Part shown: in pieces, positions 41,670 through 53,989 of the stretch | How positions within the stretch are numbered: the first letter of the stretch is position 1 | How the letters are laid out: every line of letters starts with the position of its first letter | From: Patescibacteria group bacterium | GTDB lineage: Bacteria > Patescibacteriota > Minisyncoccia > Phycocordibacterales > UBA9973 | DNA: 64,000 nt | Reading direction: 5' to 3' | Assembly (NCBI GenBank): GCA_028865035.1 | Contig: JAGWLB010000001.1 | Span: 99,668-163,667 of the forward strand | The notes under the pieces: generated by a model | What the model saw: the letters and a program-made list of their open reading frames with translations, nothing else | Database searches by the model: none | What the model was told of the DNA's origin: nothing | Translations under genes and position numbers: made by a program

Positions 41670-42962
41670 ATGAGTAAAAAGGAAATTAGTATAATAATTT
41701 TATTGATAATTATTGCACTCGTGAGATTTTTCTTTTTCTTACCGAAAGCTCCACCTTACGCAAGTGCAGTAGGGAAAAATATAATTTTTGAGGGCATAGT
41801 TGTTGATCCTCCAGATGTGCGTTTGAATAATCAGAGGCTTACAGTTGAACCCAAAAATCAAAAAGCGAATGTTTTAGTTGTAGTTCCCCGAACAGAAGAA
41901 GTGTCGTATGGAGATAAAATACAAGTCAGTGGAATATTAGAAACGCCAGAAAATTTCACCACCTCCACCGGTAAAGAATTTAATTATATGAGATATCTAG
42001 CAAATCAAGATATCTACTTTACTGTAAAAAATGCACAGATTAAAATAATATCTCATAATAATGGAAACAAGCTGAAAGCTATATTATTTAAGTTACGGGA
42101 TTTGTTCACAAATAATATTAATAATGTTATAGACCCCCCAGAAAGTGATCTGGCTTTAGGGTTAGTCATAGGTGCTCGCGGAGGTTTTGATTCTGGTATA
42201 AAGAATGAATTTATCAGCACAGGTACGATTCATATTGTTGCATTGTCTGGATATAACGTGACTGTTGTCGCAGAAGGTGTTATGAAAGTTTTCGGTTTGA
42301 TTCTTGCCCAGACATTTTCAATTATTTTTGGGATACTAATTATTTTTTTGTTTATTATAATGGCCGGCTCTTCTTCTACAGCAATCAGGGCGGGGGTTAT
42401 GGCTACTATTGCACTATTTGCTCGTATGACTGGTCGTACATATTCTGCTGGTAGAGCTCTTGTGATCGCAGGGTTGATAATGGTTGCATACGATCCTCGT
42501 GTACTCTCCGATATATCTTTTCAGTTATCTTTTATAGCAACCTTTGGTGTATTATTCTTAACACCGAAAGTTATGATTTGGGTTAGATTTTTACCACTGC
42601 GTTTTGGTTTGCGTGAGCTTGTGGCCACAACTCTCGGAGCCACTATCGCTGTGCTTCCTATTCTTCTTTATGTTACCGGAGTTCTTTCTATCGTGTCACT
42701 GCCAGCAAATATTTTAATTTTACCTTTTATACCGCTAACAATGTTAATGATTTTTATTACTGGTGTGATTGGATTTATCTCCCCAACATTCTCTTTACCA
42801 TTTGCTTATCTATCACATTTATTACTTGCATATATTTTATCGGTTATTCACTTCTTTGCTTCACTATCATTTGCTAGTGTAACTATTACATCATTCCCAT
42901 TAATTATCACTATTATCATATATATCACTATGGTCTGGTGGTTATTACGCAAAAAAGAATAA
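41670..42962 (+). CDS. comEC: ComEC/Rec2 N-terminal part: DUF4131 OB-fold plus the competence membrane-channel domain
   Basis: OB region GKNIIFEGIVVD...; IHIVALSGYNVTVV competence-domain motif; polytopic. Confidence 0.7.
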   Translation: MSKKEISIIILLIIIALVRFFFFLPKAPPYASAVGKNIIFEGIVVDPPDVRLNNQRLTVEPKNQKANVLVVVPRTEEVSYGDKIQVSGILETPENFTTSTGKEFNYMRYLANQDIYFTVKNAQIKIISHNNGNKLKAILFKLRDLFTNNINNVIDPPESDLALGLVIGARGGFDSGIKNEFISTGTIHIVALSGYNVTVVAEGVMKVFGLILAQTFSIIFGILIIFLFIIMAGSSSTAIRAGVMATIALFARMTGRTYSAGRALVIAGLIMVAYDPRVLSDISFQLSFIATFGVLFLTPKVMIWVRFLPLRFGLRELVATTLGATIAVLPILLYVTGVLSIVSLPANILILPFIPLTMLMIFITGVIGFISPTFSLPFAYLSHLLLAYILSVIHFFASLSFASVTITSFPLIITIIIYITMVWWLLRKKE

Positions 42963-43011: not shown

Positions 43012-43611
43012 TTATTGAGCTTTTTTAAAATTATCTTCTATAACTTCCCAGTTCAGATTCGCAAAGAATGCTTCAATATATTTTTTCTTTTCACTTGTTG
43101 AATAATCATATACAAATGCATGTTCCCACATATCTAAAGCCAATATCATTTCACATCCATTTAATTGACCTAAATGTTGTTCATCTACCCAAGAGGTAAG
43201 AAGCATATTGTCTTTTCTGTCGTACCAAAGTACGGCCCATCCGATACCACGAGTCGCAGCCAAAGTTTTAAAATTAGAAAGAAAATCATCGAAAGAACCA
43301 AAAGTTTTCTCTATGGCAGATTTTAAATCTCCGTCCGAAATAGGAGTTGCTTTTCCTTCTAGCGAAGAGAAATAAATCTCATGGTTTCGCATACCGTTAT
43401 ATTCAAAAGAGAAACGACGACCAAGCTCACTTACGACATACGGTGCAAAAATATCTTCTTTTTCATAACCTCGATATTCAGGTATTTTTTCTAAAATAGA
43501 ATTTGCGTTTTTCACATAGCCTGCATATAGCTTCAAATGTTCCTCAATGTTTTTTGCGCTAATACCAGCTAATTCTGGAATGTTAAATGTTTTAGGTGTA
43601 AATTTATCCAT
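43012..43611 (-). CDS. sodA: Fe/Mn superoxide dismutase
   Basis: HHxKHH-type N-domain; ALDMWEHAFVYDY metal-ligand motif. Confidence 0.85.
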   Translation of the reverse strand: MDKFTPKTFNIPELAGISAKNIEEHLKLYAGYVKNANSILEKIPEYRGYEKEDIFAPYVVSELGRRFSFEYNGMRNHEIYFSSLEGKATPISDGDLKSAIEKTFGSFDDFLSNFKTLAATRGIGWAVLWYDRKDNMLLTSWVDEQHLGQLNGCEMILALDMWEHAFVYDYSTSEKKKYIEAFFANLNWEVIEDNFKKAQ

Positions 43612-43650: not shown

Positions 43651-44520
43651 ATGAAAAATTTTCGTAGATATTTACCCTATATTTTATTTATATTTCTGAT
43701 AATTTTTCTGTCACTTATCTGGTATGTTGTATATCTAAAAGATACTCACAGTAATATATTAAAAGTTGCCTATTTAGATGTTGGTCAAGGAGATGCTATC
43801 TACATAGAAGCACCTAATGGTAGGCAGATGCTTATCGATGGTGGTCCTGGAGCGTCTGTCTTGTCGAGCCTAGGACAAGTTATGCCTTTTGCTGATCGAT
43901 CTATCGACTTAGTTCTCGCTACTCATACCGACGCTGATCATATCGGAGGTTTTCCTTTTGTTCTAGATAAGTACAAAGTAGGGCATATTATCGAGAATGG
44001 TGCTTCATCAGATACTCGGACATTTAGAGATCTTGAGAGTAGAGTAAATAAATATAAAATTGATAAAATTATTGCTACTAGAGGTACTCGCATAATACTA
44101 GATAAAAATCTAAATATTTATTTTGATATTTTATTTCCAGACAGAGATATTTCTAATTTTGAATCAAACGATGGATCCATAGTAGGACGATTAGTTTATG
44201 GTAATGAATCTTTTATGTTTACAGGTGATGCTACAAAATACACTGAACATCTAATTATGACAAATGAAAATTCTTCTACTCTTCACTCGCAAGTTTTAAA
44301 GCTTGGTCATCATGGTTCACGATATTCATCTAGTGAGCTTTGGCTTCTAAGTGTTCACCCAGATGTAGCTATTATTTCTGCTGGCCTCAACAATCGCTAC
44401 GGTCACCCTCATCAGGAAGTTCTTGATTTACTAAAGAAGCTTTCTATCCCATACTTAACGACTTATCAAAAAGGAACAATCATTTTTAAAACTGATGGAG
44501 TAACTTTGACCCATAACTAA
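43651..44520 (+). CDS. ComEC-type metallo-beta-lactamase-fold nuclease domain protein with an N-terminal TM anchor (the separated C-terminal part of ComEC)
   Basis: VAYLDVGQGDAIYIEAPNGRQMLIDGGPG; HTDADHIGG; GHHGS. Confidence 0.7.
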   Translation: MKNFRRYLPYILFIFLIIFLSLIWYVVYLKDTHSNILKVAYLDVGQGDAIYIEAPNGRQMLIDGGPGASVLSSLGQVMPFADRSIDLVLATHTDADHIGGFPFVLDKYKVGHIIENGASSDTRTFRDLESRVNKYKIDKIIATRGTRIILDKNLNIYFDILFPDRDISNFESNDGSIVGRLVYGNESFMFTGDATKYTEHLIMTNENSSTLHSQVLKLGHHGSRYSSSELWLLSVHPDVAIISAGLNNRYGHPHQEVLDLLKKLSIPYLTTYQKGTIIFKTDGVTLTHN

Positions 44521-45616: not shown

Positions 45617-48600
45617 ATGAGTGAAAAAAAATATTTCTTCAGATTTTTCAAATTATCTCACCTGGTAATAGTATCAGTGTTGTTGCTCGTATTATCTGTC
45701 GGTATTTACACTAAAGCTTATGCCATTGCCTCACCATATAATCCAGGAGATACCTTAGATCCTGCTTGTGCACCAGGGGATGTAAACTGTATTGTGCAGA
45801 TAGTTCCTTCACCGTGGACTACTGTTGCTGGTGGTATTAGTTACACTGGAGGAAACGTAAATATTAATTCTGGTTCTGCCTATCAATATGGTGGAGTAAA
45901 TGTTATCACTGCACAGACAAGTAAAAATAATTATTTCTTTGGTAATGCTGGAAATTTGACTGGAACTGGCATTAAAAATACGGCTGTGGGGGCTGGGGCA
46001 CTTTCGTCAACTACGACAAGTGCATGGAATACTGCAGTGGGGTATGACGCTCTACAGCTCAATACAACAGGGAACAGTGATGTCGCTTTCGGATACTGCG
46101 CTCTTTTAAATAATACGACTGGTTATTTCAACGCCGCGCTGGGAACATGTGCACTTCTTCACAATACAACTGGGTACGATAATACTGCTACTGGTTTTGA
46201 TTCGCTTTATTACAATACCACTGGTTATGCTAATACTTCTACTGGCTCAGTAGCTCTTTATGGTAATACTACTGGTAATAATAATGTGGCTATGGGATAT
46301 TACTCTCTTTTTAAAAATACTACCGGGTCAAATAACACAGCCATAGGAATGCAATCTCTTTATGACCTAAATATTATTGCTAATGATGGTTCTGGTAACA
46401 ACACTGCTATCGGTTACAATACCGGTCGTGGTATCACAACCGGTATCAACAACACCATCATCGGTGCCAATGTCACTGGTCTTGCGACAGGACTTTCAAA
46501 CAATATCATCATCGCCGATGGAGCAGGGAATCAGAGAATTAATATTGATAACACAGGATTATTAAAACTCGGTACTTATGGTGTAGGTACTCACACTGGT
46601 ACCGCAGCTTATACATTACAGGTTGATGCAAGCGGTAATGTGATTGAAGGACCTGCAGTTTTTTCTCCGTGGACTACTGTTGCTGGTGGTATTAGTTACA
46701 CCGGAGGAAACGTAAATATTAATTCTGGTTCTGCGTATCAATATGGCGGGGTAAATGTTATTACTGCTCAGACAGCTAGTAATAATTATTTCTTTGGTAA
46801 TGCCGGGAATTTGACGGGGACGGGTGTTAAGAATACAGCAGTAGGAGGTAGTGCTTTGATTGCTACCACTACTGGAGGTTATAATACTGCTCTAGGAGAG
46901 GAAGCTTTAAAAGTTAATGATGCTGGTGCACAAAACACTGCAGTAGGTACTTATTCTTTAACCGCTAATACTTCTGGTTCATATAATACTGGACTTGGAG
47001 TAACTACTTTATCTAGAAATACGACAGGAAAGGATAATTTAGCTGTTGGGCACAGCGCCCAGTATTACAATACTACTGGTAATTATAATACTGCTATTGG
47101 TATGTATGCTTTGCATAACAATACTACAGGTTCATATAATACTGCTATTGGTATGCAAGCCCTATATGATATTAATAGCATTACGGCCAATGATTCCGGC
47201 AACAACACCGCTCTCGGTTACAACACCGGTCGTGGTATCACTACTGGTATCAACAACACTATCATCGGTGCCAATGTCACTGGTCTTGCGCCAGGACTTT
47301 CAAACAACATCATTATTGCCGATGGAGCAGGGAATCAGAGAATTAATATTGATAACACAGGATTATTAAAACTTGGTACTTATGGTGTTGGTACTCATAC
47401 TGGTACTGCAGCTAAAACCCTCCAAGTAGATGCAAGTGGAAATGTGATAGAGGGAGCTTCACTTATTGGTTCTACTTCAACAGGCACAGGCACTGAAACA
47501 TGGCTCGGTACAAGTGCTGCGGGGTTGGGAACGGCGTCGACAGATCATACAGTTTTTATTGGTGTTGATACAGGAACAAATTCAACTTTTGGAAATCATT
47601 CAAATTTTATAGGATCAAGTGCTGGTTATAATGCAACAAATGCCACTAATTCTAATTTCGTAGGATTCAATGCTGGTGGTTATGCTACTAATGCTAACCA
47701 ATCAACTTTTTTTGGCGAAAATGCCGGAAGTTCTGCTTCTAATGCCGCATATTCTATTTTTATTGGAATGAATTCTGGTAAAAATGACACTGTTAATAAC
47801 ACTGCTACATTTGACAATACAACCACTTTTGCTAACACATCTATACTACTAGGTTACAACACTTCCACCGGTGGTTTCTCCAACTCTATAGCTATTGGTG
47901 CTTATGCCACTAACACTGCCACTAATCAATTTATGATTGGTTCAGCAAATCGTCCAATAGATAGTACCCGTATCAACGGTACCGGAGGTACACAATGTAC
48001 TATCACTACAGGTACAGGTATAGCTTGTACATCCGATGAAAGATTAAAAACAAACATTGTCGATCTATCAGATGATACACTCGCTAAACTTGCTGGAGTT
48101 CGTACTGTAACTTTCAACTGGTTAGCTACTCCTAATGTTAACCCCCAAATAGGTTTCATCGCTCAAAACCTAGAACCAATCTTCCCAGAACTAGTAGCTA
48201 CAGATTCAAATGGATACAAGTCAGTCTACTACTCTCACATAACCCCAATTCTTGTTAAAGCCATCCAAGAGATGAATCTAAAAGTTGATAAGTTATCATC
48301 ATTAGATATTTCGCAATCCAATTCACTCGGTTCACTTATTACAAGCTTCTTAGGTTCTGTTGGTAATGGTATAAAAGATTTGTATGCGAGTGTAGTGCAT
48401 ACCAACAAACTTTGTATTAATAAATCTGATGGTAATGAAGTTTGTCTTACTGGAGATCAATTACAACAATTAATGGTCAACCAAAGTTCTCCTCAGAATT
48501 TCTCTACAGTAATATACGTACCTACTACACCTACTACCACCACTACTGCACCTACAACACCTACAGATACTAAGAATACCGATACAACTTCTACTCCTAC

Positions 48601-48946
48601 TCCTACAAATACAAGTAGTACCACTTCAACCACTCCAACCACCACCACAACAACTTCTACTTCTTCAACCACATCAACCTCAGACACAACTACACCATCT
48701 ACCAATACCACCACCACAACACCTACAGATATTAAGAATACCGATACAACTCCTACTCCTACAAATACAAGTAGTACCACTTCAACTACACCTACCACCA
48801 CAACAACTTCTACTTCTTCAACCACACCAACTCCTACCACTACTACACCCGCACCTACAACACCTACAACAACAGCAACATCAACCCCAACTCCTAGCAC
48901 TACACCCACACCTACAACAACAGATACCCCAACACCGGTAAATTAA
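45617..48946 (+). CDS. 1109-aa trimeric-fibre-like surface protein: signal/anchor, YadA-head-like 16-residue NTA(V/I)G...NTTG repeats (two ~280-aa copies), peptidase-S74 intramolecular chaperone domain, Thr/Pro-rich repeat tail
   Basis: S74-like SDERLKTNIVDLSDDTLAKLAGVRTVTFNW...PQIGFIAQNLEPIFPELV...YKSVYYSHITPILVKAIQE; duplicated PWTTVAGGISYTGGNVNINSGSAYQYGGVNVITAQT. Confidence 0.65.
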   Translation: MSEKKYFFRFFKLSHLVIVSVLLLVLSVGIYTKAYAIASPYNPGDTLDPACAPGDVNCIVQIVPSPWTTVAGGISYTGGNVNINSGSAYQYGGVNVITAQTSKNNYFFGNAGNLTGTGIKNTAVGAGALSSTTTSAWNTAVGYDALQLNTTGNSDVAFGYCALLNNTTGYFNAALGTCALLHNTTGYDNTATGFDSLYYNTTGYANTSTGSVALYGNTTGNNNVAMGYYSLFKNTTGSNNTAIGMQSLYDLNIIANDGSGNNTAIGYNTGRGITTGINNTIIGANVTGLATGLSNNIIIADGAGNQRINIDNTGLLKLGTYGVGTHTGTAAYTLQVDASGNVIEGPAVFSPWTTVAGGISYTGGNVNINSGSAYQYGGVNVITAQTASNNYFFGNAGNLTGTGVKNTAVGGSALIATTTGGYNTALGEEALKVNDAGAQNTAVGTYSLTANTSGSYNTGLGVTTLSRNTTGKDNLAVGHSAQYYNTTGNYNTAIGMYALHNNTTGSYNTAIGMQALYDINSITANDSGNNTALGYNTGRGITTGINNTIIGANVTGLAPGLSNNIIIADGAGNQRINIDNTGLLKLGTYGVGTHTGTAAKTLQVDASGNVIEGASLIGSTSTGTGTETWLGTSAAGLGTASTDHTVFIGVDTGTNSTFGNHSNFIGSSAGYNATNATNSNFVGFNAGGYATNANQSTFFGENAGSSASNAAYSIFIGMNSGKNDTVNNTATFDNTTTFANTSILLGYNTSTGGFSNSIAIGAYATNTATNQFMIGSANRPIDSTRINGTGGTQCTITTGTGIACTSDERLKTNIVDLSDDTLAKLAGVRTVTFNWLATPNVNPQIGFIAQNLEPIFPELVATDSNGYKSVYYSHITPILVKAIQEMNLKVDKLSSLDISQSNSLGSLITSFLGSVGNGIKDLYASVVHTNKLCINKSDGNEVCLTGDQLQQLMVNQSSPQNFSTVIYVPTTPTTTTTAPTTPTDTKNTDTTSTPTPTNTSSTTSTTPTTTTTTSTSSTTSTSDTTTPSTNTTTTTPTDIKNTDTTPTPTNTSSTTSTTPTTTTTSTSSTTPTPTTTTPAPTTPTTTATSTPTPSTTPTPTTTDTPTPVN
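45806..46650 (+). repeat. Intragenic ~0.8-kb duplication, copy 1 (about 90% identity to copy 2)
   Basis: Shared blocks such as CCGTGGACTACTGTTGCTGGTGGTATTAGTTACAC...; offset about 855 bp. Confidence 0.75.
46661..47455 (+). repeat. Intragenic ~0.8-kb duplication, copy 2
   Basis: See copy 1. Confidence 0.75.
48500..48940 (+). repeat. Tandem Thr/Pro-rich coding repeats (PTTPTDTKNTDTT(S)TPTPTNTSSTTSTTPTTTTT units) forming the C-terminal tail of the fibre protein
   Basis: A ~150-bp unit repeated with variation; it also creates a spurious poly-Val ORF on the minus strand. Confidence 0.7.
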
Positions 48947-48955
48947 TTTATCTAA

Positions 48956-51900
48956 ATGAAAATTACAATTAAAAGATTTATAAAATATATCTTATTAATA
49001 ATATTATTTAGTATAGCTTTCCAAGCTAATGCTTCTATTATTAATGGAAGTATCAGTACTTCACATTACACGGCTCAAGTTTGCGAGACAGCTTCGTGTG
49101 CTGTGTCTACTACATCTCCAGTAAATTTTGGTAATTTCTCAACTACTCCAGCGTCTGATGTTGTCGTAACAGATACTGCACTGAAAGGATATATTTGGGG
49201 AGAATCATTTGGCTGGGCTGTACTTAACTGTATCAACACTGCAAGTGGGTGCACCTCTACGAACAATAATTTTAAAGTTGCCAACGATAGCAACGGACAT
49301 CTCTCTGGTTATGCTTGGGGACAGAATGCTGGATGGATTAACTTTGGACCTTTTGTAAACAGTACAACTTCCCCTGTAGTTATAAATAGTTCTGGACAGT
49401 TTAACGGTTATGCTTGGAGTCAGAATTATGGTTGGATAAAATTCGATTGTTCTAATCCAAGTTATTGTGTTCAGACTGATTGGCGTCCACAAAATACTAG
49501 ACCTCAGTGTAGTGATGGTATAGATAATGATAACGATGGCCTCATTGATAGTGCTGACCCTGGTTGTCATACGGATCTTAATGCAAACAACTCTAGTTCA
49601 TATGATCCGACTCTCAACAGTGAATATAATCGAACAGGTGGTGGAGGTTTTCCAAGTGGCGGCGGTAATGATATGTGTCCCAATATTGCTGGAGTACAAT
49701 CTACTGTTCCTGATGGTAAAATCTTAGATGCATCAGGACAGTGTGTAGATAATATATGTCCCAACACTGTAAACTATAACTCTGTACCACTATCTTCTTC
49801 TGGGCCGTTTACTGTAAATGTAAAAAATACAACGAAAATCGGTTTTGCTATTAAAGTATTTGATACGATAAATCCTGCTCATACAGAAGGGGATATTGCT
49901 ACAGAAAATGCCTTAAATAAAAATTCAAGTGATCAGGTTGTTGTTTACGATACTTCATTGAACAAATATGTTTTAGGTTTTGAAGATGTTGTCGGTGGAG
50001 ATTACGATTATAATGATCTTGTCGTTGGTGTTGGTTTATCTTGCGATCCTCTCTCGGGTAACACTTGCCCTAACCCTTCTTCTCTTTCAGATACAACTTC
50101 AGAAATTATAAATCACGCGCCGTCAGGTGAACTAGACCTCCAAACAATTTTAAATAATGCAGGATATAACATAAATACAATACTTGATCAGAAGCAATAT
50201 CAAGTATGGGACATTCCACAAAATACTACTGTTACCGTCAGCACAAAATTCATAAATAAATTTGCTGGCAATAGTTTTGTCTTTGGTTATTATACGAATG
50301 GCTCACTAGCAAATTTTGTTCCAATATTTAAAACTGCGAATATAGCAGGGTCTACTACAGTTCCTACTATGTGTACTCCTAATCCTAGTGATTATTGTCC
50401 AAATATTAATGGAGTACAGACTTCGCTTCCACCTGGTATGGCTTTAAACACCACAGGTCAATGTGTATATATAGTACCAGATGTATGTTCAAACATTCCT
50501 GGATCACAGCTTACAGTACCAGATGGTTATGGTTATAACTCTTTAGGTCAGTGTGTTCCTGTGGCGGCGATAGATCAATGTCCAAATATTGTAGGAAATC
50601 AGATGACAGTTCCAAGTGGTATGTCATTAAATACACAAGGGCAATGTGTCTCTTTATCTGTACCTGATGCGTGTCCGAATATACCAGGGTCTCAGTCTTC
50701 TATCCCAACAGGGGATATGTATGATTCATCTGGTAATTGTGTACCTCATACTACTATTGATCTATGCTCAAATATTGCAGGAAATCAGACAACGATTCCA
50801 AGTGGTATGGTTGTGAATACTGGAGGACAGTGTGTGCCACCAGCAGTACCCGACGCCTGTCCAAATATTGATGGAACACAGTTAAGAATACCTAGTGATA
50901 TGACTTATGATACACAAGGTAATTGCGTACCATTAATGAAGATAGATGCTTGTCCAAATATTGCTGGAACACAAACTACTTTACCTAAAGGAATGTCTTA
51001 TGACTCTCAAGGTAATTGTGTTGCTAGTCTTTGTCTTACAAATCCGAAACTTTGTGCTCCTCCAGCTGATGCTTGTTCTGTTGATCCAGCTTCGTGTGTT
51101 TCTCCGGCTAGTTTCTGTACTACTCACCCCGAGCTATGTGTTCCACCACCTACTTGCAAAGGATTGCAATGCCTTTCTCCTGGTTATATAAAAAGCATAA
51201 TTAATAATCTGACTATGCTTACTCCTATTCCTTTTGCTAAAAGAGCTAGTTCTATTATGATTACTGCTGGTATTATTTCAGGTATAGCTCTGAGTTTAGT
51301 TACATCTGTATTTACAACGCCAACTTCATTATCCGATATTTTTAATCTCCCTGTCCGTCTTTGGAGTTTGTTATTATCAGCACTTGGATTTAAAAAACGC
51401 AGAAGACCTTGGGGAACTGTATATGATAGTGTCACCAAAGAACCTCTTGATCCAGCATATGTTGCACTTTTAGATTTACAAGGTAAGGAAGTAGCTACTT
51501 CTATAACGGATATTGATGGTAGATATGGATTCTTAGCCCCAGCTGGTCAGTACAGAATGGTAGCTCACAAGACTAATTATTTATTCCCATCAGATAAGAT
51601 GAAAGATAAAAGCAGTGATGAGTTATATGAAGATTTGTATTTTGGAGATATTATTAACGTGAATGAAGACGAAGGAGTAATTATCAAAAATATTCCTATG
51701 GATGCAATTAATTTTGACTGGAATGAATTTGCAAAACAAGACCAAAGATTAATGAAGTTCTACTCAAGGCGCGACATCTGGATTGTTCGTATTTCAAGCG
51801 CTCTTTTCTATTTTGGACTTTTGCTTACCATCATTGCAGTTGTAGGATTACCAAATGTTTACAATATAGCGACTCTAGTTGCTTATATGGTATTGCTGGT

Positions 51901-52186
51901 GTTTAAGAATGTAACCATCAGTCCTAGTTCCCTTGGTACTGTAGTTTTCAGTGAGAACGGTAATCCTGTGTCATTTGCTATTATGAGAATATTCAGAGCA
52001 GATGATAATTATGAAGTTGCACATAAGATTGTAAATAAAACTGGTAAGTACTACTGTATTGTGCCAAATGGAACATATTATGTTGAAATTGAAAAGAAAA
52101 ATCTAGATGCTACTTATAGCCTAATCTATACATCTGGTCCTATTATTGTTAAAAAGGGTCATATAAATAATAAGTTTAAAGTATAA
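48956..52186 (+). CDS. 1076-aa surface protein: signal peptide, Ca-binding-like DGIDNDNDGLID motif, DUF4114-like segment, nine ~40-aa CPNI(A/P)G(x)Q..P.G...GQCV repeats, Cys-rich stalk, TM segments, and a C-terminal carboxypeptidase-regulatory-like beta domain
   Basis: VVVYDTSLNKYVLGFEDVVGGDYDYNDLVVGV (DUF4114-like); repeats visible 49676-51000; GRYGFLAPAGQYRMVAHKTNYLFP. Confidence 0.5.
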   Translation: MKITIKRFIKYILLIILFSIAFQANASIINGSISTSHYTAQVCETASCAVSTTSPVNFGNFSTTPASDVVVTDTALKGYIWGESFGWAVLNCINTASGCTSTNNNFKVANDSNGHLSGYAWGQNAGWINFGPFVNSTTSPVVINSSGQFNGYAWSQNYGWIKFDCSNPSYCVQTDWRPQNTRPQCSDGIDNDNDGLIDSADPGCHTDLNANNSSSYDPTLNSEYNRTGGGGFPSGGGNDMCPNIAGVQSTVPDGKILDASGQCVDNICPNTVNYNSVPLSSSGPFTVNVKNTTKIGFAIKVFDTINPAHTEGDIATENALNKNSSDQVVVYDTSLNKYVLGFEDVVGGDYDYNDLVVGVGLSCDPLSGNTCPNPSSLSDTTSEIINHAPSGELDLQTILNNAGYNINTILDQKQYQVWDIPQNTTVTVSTKFINKFAGNSFVFGYYTNGSLANFVPIFKTANIAGSTTVPTMCTPNPSDYCPNINGVQTSLPPGMALNTTGQCVYIVPDVCSNIPGSQLTVPDGYGYNSLGQCVPVAAIDQCPNIVGNQMTVPSGMSLNTQGQCVSLSVPDACPNIPGSQSSIPTGDMYDSSGNCVPHTTIDLCSNIAGNQTTIPSGMVVNTGGQCVPPAVPDACPNIDGTQLRIPSDMTYDTQGNCVPLMKIDACPNIAGTQTTLPKGMSYDSQGNCVASLCLTNPKLCAPPADACSVDPASCVSPASFCTTHPELCVPPPTCKGLQCLSPGYIKSIINNLTMLTPIPFAKRASSIMITAGIISGIALSLVTSVFTTPTSLSDIFNLPVRLWSLLLSALGFKKRRRPWGTVYDSVTKEPLDPAYVALLDLQGKEVATSITDIDGRYGFLAPAGQYRMVAHKTNYLFPSDKMKDKSSDELYEDLYFGDIINVNEDEGVIIKNIPMDAINFDWNEFAKQDQRLMKFYSRRDIWIVRISSALFYFGLLLTIIAVVGLPNVYNIATLVAYMVLLVFKNVTISPSSLGTVVFSENGNPVSFAIMRIFRADDNYEVAHKIVNKTGKYYCIVPNGTYYVEIEKKNLDATYSLIYTSGPIIVKKGHINNKFKV

Positions 52187-53380: not shown

Positions 53381-53989
53381 ATGAAGAAAGTAACACTTAT
53401 TTTTCCTGCCACTATAGGTTTGAAAAAAGAAAAAATACTTAAAAATCAGGTAAAGGATTTTTGTGTAAAAAATATTTATGATTTTGAAGTTGTTAAAGAC
53501 AATTCAAATTCGATAAAACAAACGCAAATGAAAATCGAACATGATCCGCAGCTTTTGGCTATTGCTCAAAGTATAACAAGTGGATTATCTGCAATGCAGC
53601 TCAAAGATCTCGGGGATTTATCTGAGACAATTGTAGGTGAAAAGAAAATTAGACAATATATTATGGGCAATAGGAAAACAAATCAGCACTCATATTTTGT
53701 TGATGATACACGTCAAATTGGAGACATAGGTAATGTGAACAATTGGGCGAGAAAGAAAACCGTTGACCCGGATAATGTTACAAGAAATACTTCTGGTTTC
53801 GTTATTTTAACTGAGGGGGTGCACTTAAATCAAAATTTCAGTTGTTTAAATCCAGAAAAGTCAGAAAGAGAAAGGATTTACTTAGTAAAAGACAGCCCTA
53901 AACCTTATCGTAAATTTGATGGGAATTACAATAGACATTGTAGTAAATGTCCGTTTACTGAAGGATGTGTTGTGTGTACTTTACCTTAA
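53381..53989 (+). CDS. Orphan 202-aa hypothetical protein with a C-terminal CxxC-x5-CxxC knuckle, inserted between rpsG and fusA
   Basis: No recognisable family; own putative promoter (TTGACA at about 53300) and flanking terminators. Confidence 0.45.
   Translation: MKKVTLIFPATIGLKKEKILKNQVKDFCVKNIYDFEVVKDNSNSIKQTQMKIEHDPQLLAIAQSITSGLSAMQLKDLGDLSETIVGEKKIRQYIMGNRKTNQHSYFVDDTRQIGDIGNVNNWARKKTVDPDNVTRNTSGFVILTEGVHLNQNFSCLNPEKSERERIYLVKDSPKPYRKFDGNYNRHCSKCPFTEGCVVCTLP

Follow-up and report, generated by a model that had tools for sequence, protein, structure and literature searches.

A candidate modular cell-surface protein of Paceibacteria-type Patescibacteria with a conserved head, a variable stalk and a duplicated C-terminal module

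The gene and its locus

We analysed a 64,000-nucleotide stretch of contig JAGWLB010000001.1 from a Patescibacteria group bacterium (assembly GCA_028865035.1), hereafter called the window, with a focus on one gene for a large cysteine-rich protein. The gene is a single open reading frame (ORF) that starts with ATG, and its limits are exactly those given in a preliminary description of the window made from the sequence alone. Its product is 100 % identical to an NCBI protein from a metagenome-assembled genome (MAG), which is named 'carboxypeptidase regulatory-like domain-containing protein [Patescibacteria group bacterium]'. As argued below, this target gene probably encodes a modular cell-surface protein that is specific to the Paceibacteria-type lineage of the Patescibacteria and consists of an exported head, a variable stalk and a membrane anchor, which is the explanation that we favour overall.

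The window is AT-rich (~34-40 % GC), and the target gene is flanked by housekeeping genes, namely rpsL, rpsG and fusA and the genes for ComEC, a metallo-beta-lactamase domain protein, an M50 protease and a P-type ATPase. The stop codon of an upstream gene for a tail-fibre-like protein is separated by 9 nt from the start of the target ORF, and the two genes are probably co-transcribed. When 83 related loci were examined for neighbours, a conserved gene order emerged in which the M50 protease gene is followed by an optional tail-fibre-like gene, the target family gene and then rpsL-rpsG-fusA. Specifically, of the 69 loci with sufficient flank, 35 had rpsL as their immediate downstream neighbour in the same orientation, an M50 protease gene was present upstream in 32 of 53 loci, and a fibre-like gene was found at a distance of at most 8 kb in ~28 of the 83, either upstream or between the family gene and rpsL.

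The 1109-residue product of the upstream gene carries a Pfam Peptidase_S74 chaperone domain and matches tail fibre and tail spike PHROGs down to E 6e-38. Conceivably, the locus could thus be a prophage or tailocin remnant, with the target protein as a phage receptor-binding or structural protein. The target, in contrast to its upstream neighbour, had zero PHROG matches and was therefore not classed as a phage tail fibre or receptor-binding protein. In addition, both genes are located amid housekeeping genes in a synteny that is conserved across many species, base composition shows no break apart from a slightly raised GC content, and the target has a signal peptide and a multi-helix membrane anchor. 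Prophage origin was therefore rejected, on the missing PHROG match of the target and the conserved housekeeping synteny, and we regard it as highly improbable. The upstream gene looks like a domesticated phage-type fibre gene, because it sits among housekeeping genes and recurs in relatives.

Table 1. Features of the target gene and of its upstream neighbour, with positions in the window and AlphaFold confidence (pLDDT, predicted local distance difference test)
Feature	Position	Strand	Residues	Remarks
Whole ORF	48956..52186	+	1076 aa	Probable surface protein of the Patescibacteria 'GW-head / C-terminal anchor' family
Signal peptide (predicted)	48956..49033	+	1-26	MKITIKRFIKYILLIILFSIAFQANA, followed by S
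N-terminal all-beta head	49034..49501	+	27-182	Three GYxWxxxxGW[IA]x[FL] hairpin motifs, three local Cys pairs
Acidic double-disulfide (Ca-binding-type) motif	49499..49576	+	182-207	NCBIfam NF033662
Isolated CPNI unit	49664..49756	+	237-267
Beta-rich insert with DUF4114	49757..50374	+	268-473	Pfam match at 318-359; nine predicted strands, pLDDT 55-80
Seven tandem CPNI units	50384..51031	+	477-692	31 aa each, xxDxCPNIxGxQxxxPxGxxxxxxGxCV
Cys/Pro mini-repeat stalk	51032..51172	+	693-739	Eight Cys, 5-7 residues apart
Helix H1	51230..51313	+	759-786	Best stop-transfer span candidate
Helix H2	51320..51382	+	789-809	Conserved P-x-R-L-W, then KKRRR at 813-817; weakly hydrophobic
Beta-sandwich 1 (transthyretin-like / CarboxypepD_reg)	51407..51706	+	818-917	PF13620, pLDDT >90
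Helical hairpin H3 + H4	51767..51910	+	938-964 and 968-985	3-residue uncharged loop
Beta-sandwich 2 (transthyretin-like)	51932..52183	+	993-1076	Single conserved unpaired Cys at 1034
Tail-fibre-like protein	45617..48946	+	1109 aa	Peptidase_S74 at 806-860; PHROG matches; recurrent, not obligate neighbour

Family architecture and the C-terminal module

Whole-protein searches recovered at least 587 homologous protein clusters (90 % identity), and every cluster with a named source belonged to Patescibacteria, Paceibacterota or Nomurabacteria. Furthermore, when a representative genome of each GTDB species was scanned with a sequence pattern, 495 loci were found that encode the C-terminal module of the protein (C-module; H1 to sandwich 2 in Table 1), 80 of which were kept. 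The source labels of these 80 read Paceibacterota, Nomurabacteria, Parcubacteria, Taylorbacteria, Minisyncoccia or just 'uncultured bacterium' or 'bacterium', and some were generic 'Saccharibacteria' labels on co-assembly bins. The sole exception was locus L046 on a contig of 1630 bp (CAZEYK010000100.1) that was binned as 'uncultured Gammaproteobacteria'; it encodes a typical C-module and repeat units of the kind described below, and is almost certainly a mis-binned Patescibacteria contig.

When homologues were mapped onto the target, the alignment covered residues ~26-200 and 750-1076 in 119 of 119 sequences, the repeat region in 27-56 and residues 275-475 in no more than 9-20. The head at the N-terminus and the C-module are the parts that define the family. 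Since only about one-third of the members carry any unit of the 31-residue CPNI repeat (with counts from 0 to 9), this repeat is an accessory stalk module. At the stalk position, other members have von Willebrand factor A (VWA) domains, Pro-, Thr- or Gly-rich linkers, or mini-repeats of the FCTLNPTDPSC type, and ectodomains vary from ~300 to 1750 residues. Complete members, i.e. those not cut by a contig end, start with a signal-peptide-like N-terminus. The window protein has all three family features: the N-terminal signal, a head with three GW motifs, and a PWGxVYD C-module of the family length. Homologues thus have conserved ends and a hypervariable middle.

The general outline proposed in that description, a secreted, membrane-anchored surface protein rich in Cys pairs, agrees with what we found, as do its Cys-rich N-terminal domain, calcium-binding-type motif, DUF4114-like block, Cys/Pro stalk and helix-embedded carboxypeptidase-regulatory-like module at the C-terminus. 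The N-terminus resembles a Sec-type signal peptide, with a basic n-region, a hydrophobic core at residues 8-31 and a putative AxA-type cleavage site between ANA and S. It has no Cys, and the possibility of a lipoprotein was rejected on this basis. The ectodomain contains 36 Cys, all of which fall into sequence-adjacent pairs (18 in total), and a single Cys is present in the C-terminal 300 residues.

The head, with Cys pairs 43/48, 92/99 and 165/171, is strongly conserved across species (~36-65 % identity). AlphaFold, run on a trimmed alignment of 26 sequences for the ectodomain, gave a confident all-beta model of residues 28-177 with a pLDDT of mostly 88-96, and the head is probably an eight-stranded, barrel-like domain. 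No Pfam match at E <= 1 was found for residues 27-182, and none was precomputed for this part in any of 120 homologues. The aromatic GW hairpins recall wall-binding repeats, a resemblance for which there is no Pfam match; the head matched neither CW_binding_1 choline or cell-wall-binding repeats nor GW modules. All fold comparisons were made against the PDB, where a Foldseek search with the ectodomain model returned only chance matches to Fab fragments. Sequence searches of the PDB with the single sequence, a repeat profile and an ectodomain profile gave nothing significant. Soluble eight-stranded meander beta-barrels (hemophilin, the fHbp / TbpB barrel, YceI) and small OmpA-like barrels appeared with low scores and no sequence similarity, and the part matched was not confirmed as the head.

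Behind the head, the DGIDNDNDGLID block matches NF033662, 'acidic double-disulfide repeat', as a single copy (42.2 bits versus a cut-off of 41), in which Cys185 and Cys204 flank the acidic core DGIDNDNDGLIDSADPG. The same motif weakly matched a Cys-rich motif of teneurin-4 (E 0.5). The DUF4114 (PF13448) match is marginal, with 27.9 bits versus a gathering score of 27 over profile positions 36-82 of 85, and a precomputed match to the same family is also present in the closest homologues P0002, P0003, P0007 and P0009. The Cys/Pro stalk is predicted to be disordered (pLDDT <50). It is a short version of a second uncurated Cys mini-repeat, C-x2-[NH]-P-x4-C, with units of 11-14 residues and two Cys each (e.g. 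FCTLNPTDPSC and TNPELCVPPPD), which forms long stalk arrays in many homologues (P0002, P0003, P0021, P0024 and others).

The C-module of ~330 residues was modelled by AlphaFold from a 120-sequence alignment with a mean pLDDT of 86.7, and the model adds a short helix between sandwich 1 and H3. The protein matched PF13620 (CarboxypepD_reg) with 44.6 bits versus a gathering score of 32.3 (E 1.8e-11) in two stretches, the best of which covers residues 820-875. Both sandwiches have a seven-stranded prealbumin / transthyretin-like fold, as judged from pLDDT values above 90 and Foldseek matches to Bacillus anthracis TIE, SdrD B, CnaB pilin domains, transthyretin and a carboxypeptidase D domain. These matches concerned the sandwiches only, and no solved structure in the PDB had the helix arrangement of the C-module. 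Conservation along the protein is highest in sandwich 1, where many positions reach >=80 % identity across the 120 sequences. Importantly for the origin of the module, hhalign aligned H1-H2-sandwich 1 and H3-H4-sandwich 2 as collinear homologues (probability 98.5 %, E 1.7e-15). The two sandwiches matched each other at E 1.3e-14, and the helices alone gave no significant score in this comparison. The C-module is an internal duplication of a unit of two helices and a transthyretin-like sandwich. The distance from the PWGxVYD motif to the C-terminus amounts to 257-260 residues in nearly all of the ~70 motif-bearing members; in the window protein, PWG occupies residues 818-820 and is followed by 259 residues to the end.

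About one-quarter of the C-module loci are second copies elsewhere in the genome that lack the GW head. The ectodomains of these copies include NHL propellers, FG-GAP propellers, fibronectin type III (fn3) domains and Rax2-like propellers, and VWA domains also occur on C-module proteins. Two or more C-module genes were found within single MAGs (L004/L053, L007/L048, L042/L073 and L040/L063), one of them being the syntenic GW-head copy beside rpsL; among the non-syntenic copies, that of L053 carries fn3 and that of L048 has no Pfam match. The presence of different ectodomains on one C-module within single MAGs points to domain shuffling onto a fixed anchor. Because paralogues join the C-module to NHL, FG-GAP, fn3 and VWA ectodomains, it is a general C-terminal anchor of surface proteins in Paceibacteria-type Patescibacteria. 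It thereby resembles the LPXTG-sortase, PEP-CTERM and PGF-CTERM signals and the C-terminal beta-sandwich of the type IX secretion system, which are likewise constant C-terminal elements on unrelated ectodomains within one lineage. Unlike these sorting tags, the C-module, with its four helices and two sandwiches, is far larger than any known tag, and we identified neither a processing enzyme nor any sign of cleavage.

The closest counterparts in overall design are the Gram-positive MSCRAMM / Sdr adhesins, such as Staphylococcus aureus SdrD with its CnaB-type B repeats and B. anthracis TIE. Like the target, they have a signal peptide and a distal head on a repetitive stalk, and in both a wall-spanning segment of low complexity precedes the anchor; prealbumin / transthyretin-like sandwiches are shared as well (Foldseek E 8e-6 to 1e-3). 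In contrast to these adhesins, the target is anchored by helices and has no LPXTG or sortase signal, its sandwiches follow the first membrane helix rather than forming the stalk, the stalk is made of 31-residue units with a single disulfide, and its head bears no relation to the DEv-IgG domains with which MSCRAMM adhesins bind ligands by the dock-lock-latch mechanism. The Pfam SdrD_B model scored 17.7 bits on the target versus a threshold of 29.7. A sortase substrate was rejected, since the translated sequence contains no LPXTG and its C-terminus is a beta-sandwich ending in ...INNKFKV. A CnaB isopeptide domain was also considered and seems unlikely, as Lys is missing from the first strand of sandwich 1 (WGTVYD). 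A further likeness is that to NOMO of the BOS complex and to CarboxypepD_reg arrays, where transthyretin-like sandwiches also lie beside membrane helices (Foldseek 9c7u_B, E 6e-4); faint precomputed NOMO1-like Pfam matches were present in homologues. NOMO, however, is a eukaryotic protein of the endoplasmic reticulum with a long luminal array, a single C-terminal span and no duplication of a helix pair, and its homology to the target is limited to the fold.

The CPNI repeat

The preliminary description had counted nine units of ~40 residues. We found eight canonical CxNxxGxQ units with a period of 31 residues, whose first Cys is located at residues 241, 481, 511, 542, 573, 604, 635 and 666, the two Cys of a unit being 22 residues apart. 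The sequences CPNT at residue 268 and CPNP at residue 371 lack the G-x-Q part and hence fall outside this count. Ten columns are invariant across the eight units (D3, C5, N7, I8, G10, Q12, P16, G25, C27 and V28), and a search with the motif C.[ND]..G.Q...P detected eight copies in the target ORF and none elsewhere in the six-frame translation of the window. Tandem Repeats Finder detected no tandem repeat at the DNA level, which, together with the 39-61 % amino acid identity between units, indicates that they are old and diverged. In the unit alignment, the subtypes VPDxC... and xIDxC... alternate, which suggests a possible 62-residue super-repeat. AlphaFold predicts one short beta-hairpin per unit, with a pLDDT of 70-84 and the closing Cys in the second strand.

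To look for the repeat beyond the family, a profile of 113 units was compared with 1.84 billion representative proteins. This returned 2,549 matches at E <= 1e-3, of which 956 had E <= 1e-10 and 241 E <= 1e-30, and the target protein itself matched the repeat profile at E = 4e-99. The maximum was 34 matched stretches in one protein of 2,410 residues. Word-indexed searches, which are unsuited to such a short, degenerate repeat, retrieved five proteins with the repeat region alone and two with a two-unit profile, and the exhaustive search of representative proteins was needed to recover the relatives. The proteins with CPNI units are very diverse in amino acid composition. Most have an N-terminal signal peptide, and many end in a hydrophobic segment and a basic tail. 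The repeat co-occurs with VWA and DUF11 domains, with pseudopilin N-termini and with the extracytoplasmic part of histidine kinases. Named carriers include Gaiellaceae (Actinomycetota) and Acutalibacteraceae (Bacillota), so that at least three phyla are represented. The CPNI repeat is thus a widespread, uncurated extracytoplasmic module.

The preliminary description could not assign the repeat to a named family and had named a match to a well-known domain with a function unrelated to adhesion as evidence that would speak against its reading. Our profile searches of Pfam, NCBIfam and PHROGs, and our sequence and fold searches of the PDB, were all negative in this respect. Even ten-copy proteins have their repeats left uncovered by Pfam and NCBIfam models, and the best match to PDB profiles had E 0.35, so that no solved structure contains it. 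With their tandem Cys-stapled units of 25-45 residues and an invariant D, N or Q near the start, arrays of calcium-binding EGF or TSP repeats and of NF033662 are similar to CPNI arrays, and both may be likened to extracellular rods. The CPNI unit differs from them in having one disulfide instead of two or three and in its consensus D-x-C-P-N-[IL]-x-G-x-Q-x3-P-x-G-x6-G-x-C-V, and it matches none of their models. For the window protein, there was no EGF, cEGF or TSP Pfam match at E <= 1, and the only such match, in a ten-copy relative, was to cEGF with 15.8 bits versus a threshold of 26.6. EGF, cEGF and TSP identity was accordingly rejected, given the unmatched profiles and one Cys pair per unit rather than three disulfides.

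Two further observations concern the proteins that carry the repeat. Firstly, in many CPNI proteins of high-GC-type composition a basic stretch is followed by ...LPFTP, ...PPVTG, ...PQFTG or ...PNLTG as the exact end of the protein (P0121, P0127, P0153, P0155, P0162, P0164, P0179, P0188, P0195, P0252, P0258 and P0260), one of the clusters being named Gaiellaceae. From the sequences, such ends may be an unrecognised C-terminal sorting signal, or a systematic truncation of LPXTG-like motifs. Secondly, in seven multi-pass proteins (P0216, P0227, P0229, P0241, P0245, P0263 and P0266) three or four CPNI units start the N-terminal extracytoplasmic region. The only one of these that was scanned, P0216, is a sensor histidine kinase with HisKA and HATPase_c domains.

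Membrane topology and possible role

With respect to the side of the membrane on which the C-terminal domain is located, a point on which the preliminary description had called for topology prediction, the evidence is divided: charge bias and Cys pattern favour the cytoplasm, and the AlphaFold hairpin and the duplication oppose it. The topology that we prefer, and that we hold to be reasonably probable, has both sandwiches in the cytoplasm, with H1 spanning the membrane, H2 interfacial and H3-H4 as a hairpin. Across the family, K and R residues cluster immediately behind H2 (net +3.7), ahead of H3 (+3.5) and behind H4 (+1.9), and there was no positive charge in the H1-H2 loop (-0.95) or the H3-H4 loop (+0.15). 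Under the positive-inside rule, these K/R clusters beside the sandwiches place the latter in the cytoplasm, which requires just one of H1 and H2 to span. Crude sums on the Hessa scale amounted to 0.4 and 8.2 kcal/mol for H1 and H2 of the target, and the family medians were 1.9 (H1), 4.2 (H2), 0.5 (H3) and 2.9 (H4) kcal/mol. H2 is thus the least favourable helix, and may be interfacial or form a second span. Moreover, 83 % of the members have an even number of Cys in the ectodomain (mean 13.5), while the C-module has one conserved unpaired Cys column in 87 of 120 members and exactly one Cys after residue 812 in 73 of the 120. An unpaired Cys in the C-module, as opposed to even counts in the ectodomain, fits a reducing compartment.

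Several points weigh against this topology. AlphaFold draws H1-H2 as a tight hairpin of 21 and 28 residues, and this pair of helices is, through the duplication, a homologue of hairpin H3-H4. Should H1 and H2 each cross the membrane, the two sandwiches must lie outside. Furthermore, CarboxypepD_reg and CnaB-like domains are almost always extracytoplasmic. Conceivably, then, H1-H2 and H3-H4 could be two transmembrane hairpins with four spans and nothing in the cytoplasm, and the sandwiches could serve as a pedestal on the outer face or a wall-binding base, like Gram-positive B-repeats. This agrees with the direct packing of the 21-residue H2 after H1, with the collinear homology of the two units, helices included, and with the likeness of the sandwiches to the extracellular domains of CnaB, SdrD B and TIE. 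It would, however, invert the positive-inside rule, with every K/R cluster outside and uncharged loops of 2-4 residues inside, and it would leave a lone conserved unpaired Cys in a compartment where the 36 external Cys are all paired. It would also demand a full span from H2, the helix that scores worst for insertion and contains Pro and Arg at conserved positions. We therefore regard an arrangement with everything outside as rather unlikely, and what remains is divided among mixed topologies.

Based on these findings, we propose the following model. A Sec signal peptide would export the first ~750 residues, and the 18 adjacent Cys pairs would form local disulfides outside the cell. An MdbA-like thiol-disulfide oxidoreductase family is enriched in the Candidate Phyla Radiation (CPR), the members of which lack a Gram-negative envelope (PMC6744442), and on both grounds it is plausible that disulfides form extracellularly. 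In Parcubacteria, the enriched families consist for the most part of hypothetical membrane proteins (PMC6744442). The head, with its predicted fold, would be the constant extracellular element and the likely binding part, borne on a hypervariable stalk of interchangeable modules, which in the window protein are the acidic calcium-type motif, the DUF4114 beta domain, the eight CPNI units and the Cys/Pro mini-repeat. Most likely, the CPNI units would act as a rigid, protease-resistant spacer in which each hairpin is stapled by a disulfide, holding the head off the membrane through the wall or S-layer, and the Cys/Pro mini-repeats may likewise be disulfide-stapled spacers. Speculatively, Ca2+ could be bound between units by the D, N and Q that are invariant at their starts, as in calcium-binding EGF arrays. 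Inserted modules (DUF4114 here, VWA elsewhere) may add specificity, and the C-module would hold the protein in the membrane. Often together with the adjacent tail-fibre-like protein, the protein would probably mediate contact with other cells or surfaces.

This attachment or adhesion role is suggested by the architecture of the protein. The preliminary description had read the adjacency of the fibre gene as a sign of a cell-surface attachment locus; this adjacency indeed recurs in about one-third of the 83 related loci, whereas the repeat is special neither to this protein nor to this locus. Three points count against the proposed role. The fibre gene is adjacent in only about one-third of the loci, the strong conservation of the head is no less compatible with a conserved self-ligand (wall, S-layer or fibre) than with a host-specific adhesin, and the presence of CPNI units in the sensor regions of kinases may indicate ligand binding or sensing rather than mere spacing.

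In a different reading, the protein is an envelope-structural one: its head would bind either the wall or S-layer of the cell that makes it or the trimeric fibre encoded next to it, and the protein would tether or space envelope layers or anchor the fibre to the membrane. In favour of this, there is usually one syntenic copy at a fixed housekeeping position beside the str operon, only the stalk varies while the head is highly conserved, the fibre gene recurs on either side, and the GW hairpins resemble wall-binding repeats, albeit with no Pfam match. Nevertheless, stalks of orthologues range from ~100 to >900 residues, which would be odd for a fixed-distance tether. In addition, the fibre is absent from two-thirds of the loci, and insertions such as VWA and DUF4114 are typically found in binding proteins. 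Such a structural role consequently remains a tentative alternative. Still less probable is that the protein acts as a trans-membrane receptor that relays ligand binding to cytoplasmic sandwiches, or that a cytoplasmic fragment is set free from it through regulated intramembrane proteolysis, with the M50 site-2-type protease encoded nearby as the cleaving enzyme. The conserved upstream position of the M50 gene is compatible with this, as are the richness of H1 in small residues, the helix-breaking N and P of H2, and the fact that sandwich 1, the most conserved part, is cytoplasmic in the favoured topology. However, the synteny block also comprises ComEC, L28 and the str operon, so that the adjacency may simply be a consequence of gene order being conserved. 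In addition, no signalling domain could be recognised, and C-module paralogues elsewhere in the genome occur without M50.

Neither a curated family nor a solved structure was found for the head, for the CPNI unit or for the duplicated C-module, and literature searches yielded no paper on these parts or on the target family; in its overall design, the protein is an ordinary modular surface or adhesin-type protein of bacteria. A bolder interpretation, which we consider doubtful, is that the C-module constitutes an undescribed Paceibacteria-specific class of anchor, composed of a duplicated helix pair plus transthyretin-like domain, in which both cytoplasmic sandwiches couple varied heads to a common intracellular partner, and that CPNI is a new, widespread, calcium-stabilised disulfide rod. 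If the sandwiches are cytoplasmic, the C-module would be a sorting or outside-in coupling device and not a passive anchor.

Current ideas are not overturned by these findings, since the overall design is a familiar one. Partner-cell recognition and attachment are largely unknown in Patescibacteria other than Saccharibacteria, and published work concentrates on type IV pili. The analysis defines a family of surface proteins that is conserved and syntenic across hundreds of Paceibacteria-type species, together with an uncurated 31-residue disulfide repeat in ~2,500 protein clusters. Any protein ending in the C-module becomes a candidate surface protein, and the module can thus flag the surface proteome. 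The main value would accordingly lie in a handle on the surface proteome and the possible host-contact apparatus of Paceibacteria-type Patescibacteria, and the family, its C-module and the CPNI repeat are targets for new family models, structural work and surface proteomics.

Lastly, some minor observations were made on the neighbouring genes. The upstream fibre protein is internally duplicated, nt 46658-47410 encoding a 70 % identical copy of its residues 1-330, and a Thr/Pro/Ser-rich tail of ~150 residues follows its Peptidase_S74 chaperone. The ComEC gene of the window is split into a DUF4131 plus Competence ORF (41670-42962) and a separate metallo-beta-lactamase ORF (43651-44520), with a minus-strand ORF at 43012-43611 between the two parts. 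ComEC is also split in locus L001, and in L001 and L002 the minus-strand gene at the position of the split encodes an Fe/Mn superoxide dismutase. Between rpsG and fusA, the window contains a 202-residue ORF (53381-53989, plus strand) with no Pfam match and a Cys-rich C-terminus, ...HCSKCPFTEGCVVCTLP, and L001 has a GIY-YIG gene on the opposite strand at the equivalent intergenic position. The occurrence of these two different genes in one spacer raises the possibility that the rpsG-fusA spacer may be an insertion hot-spot for small mobile genes.

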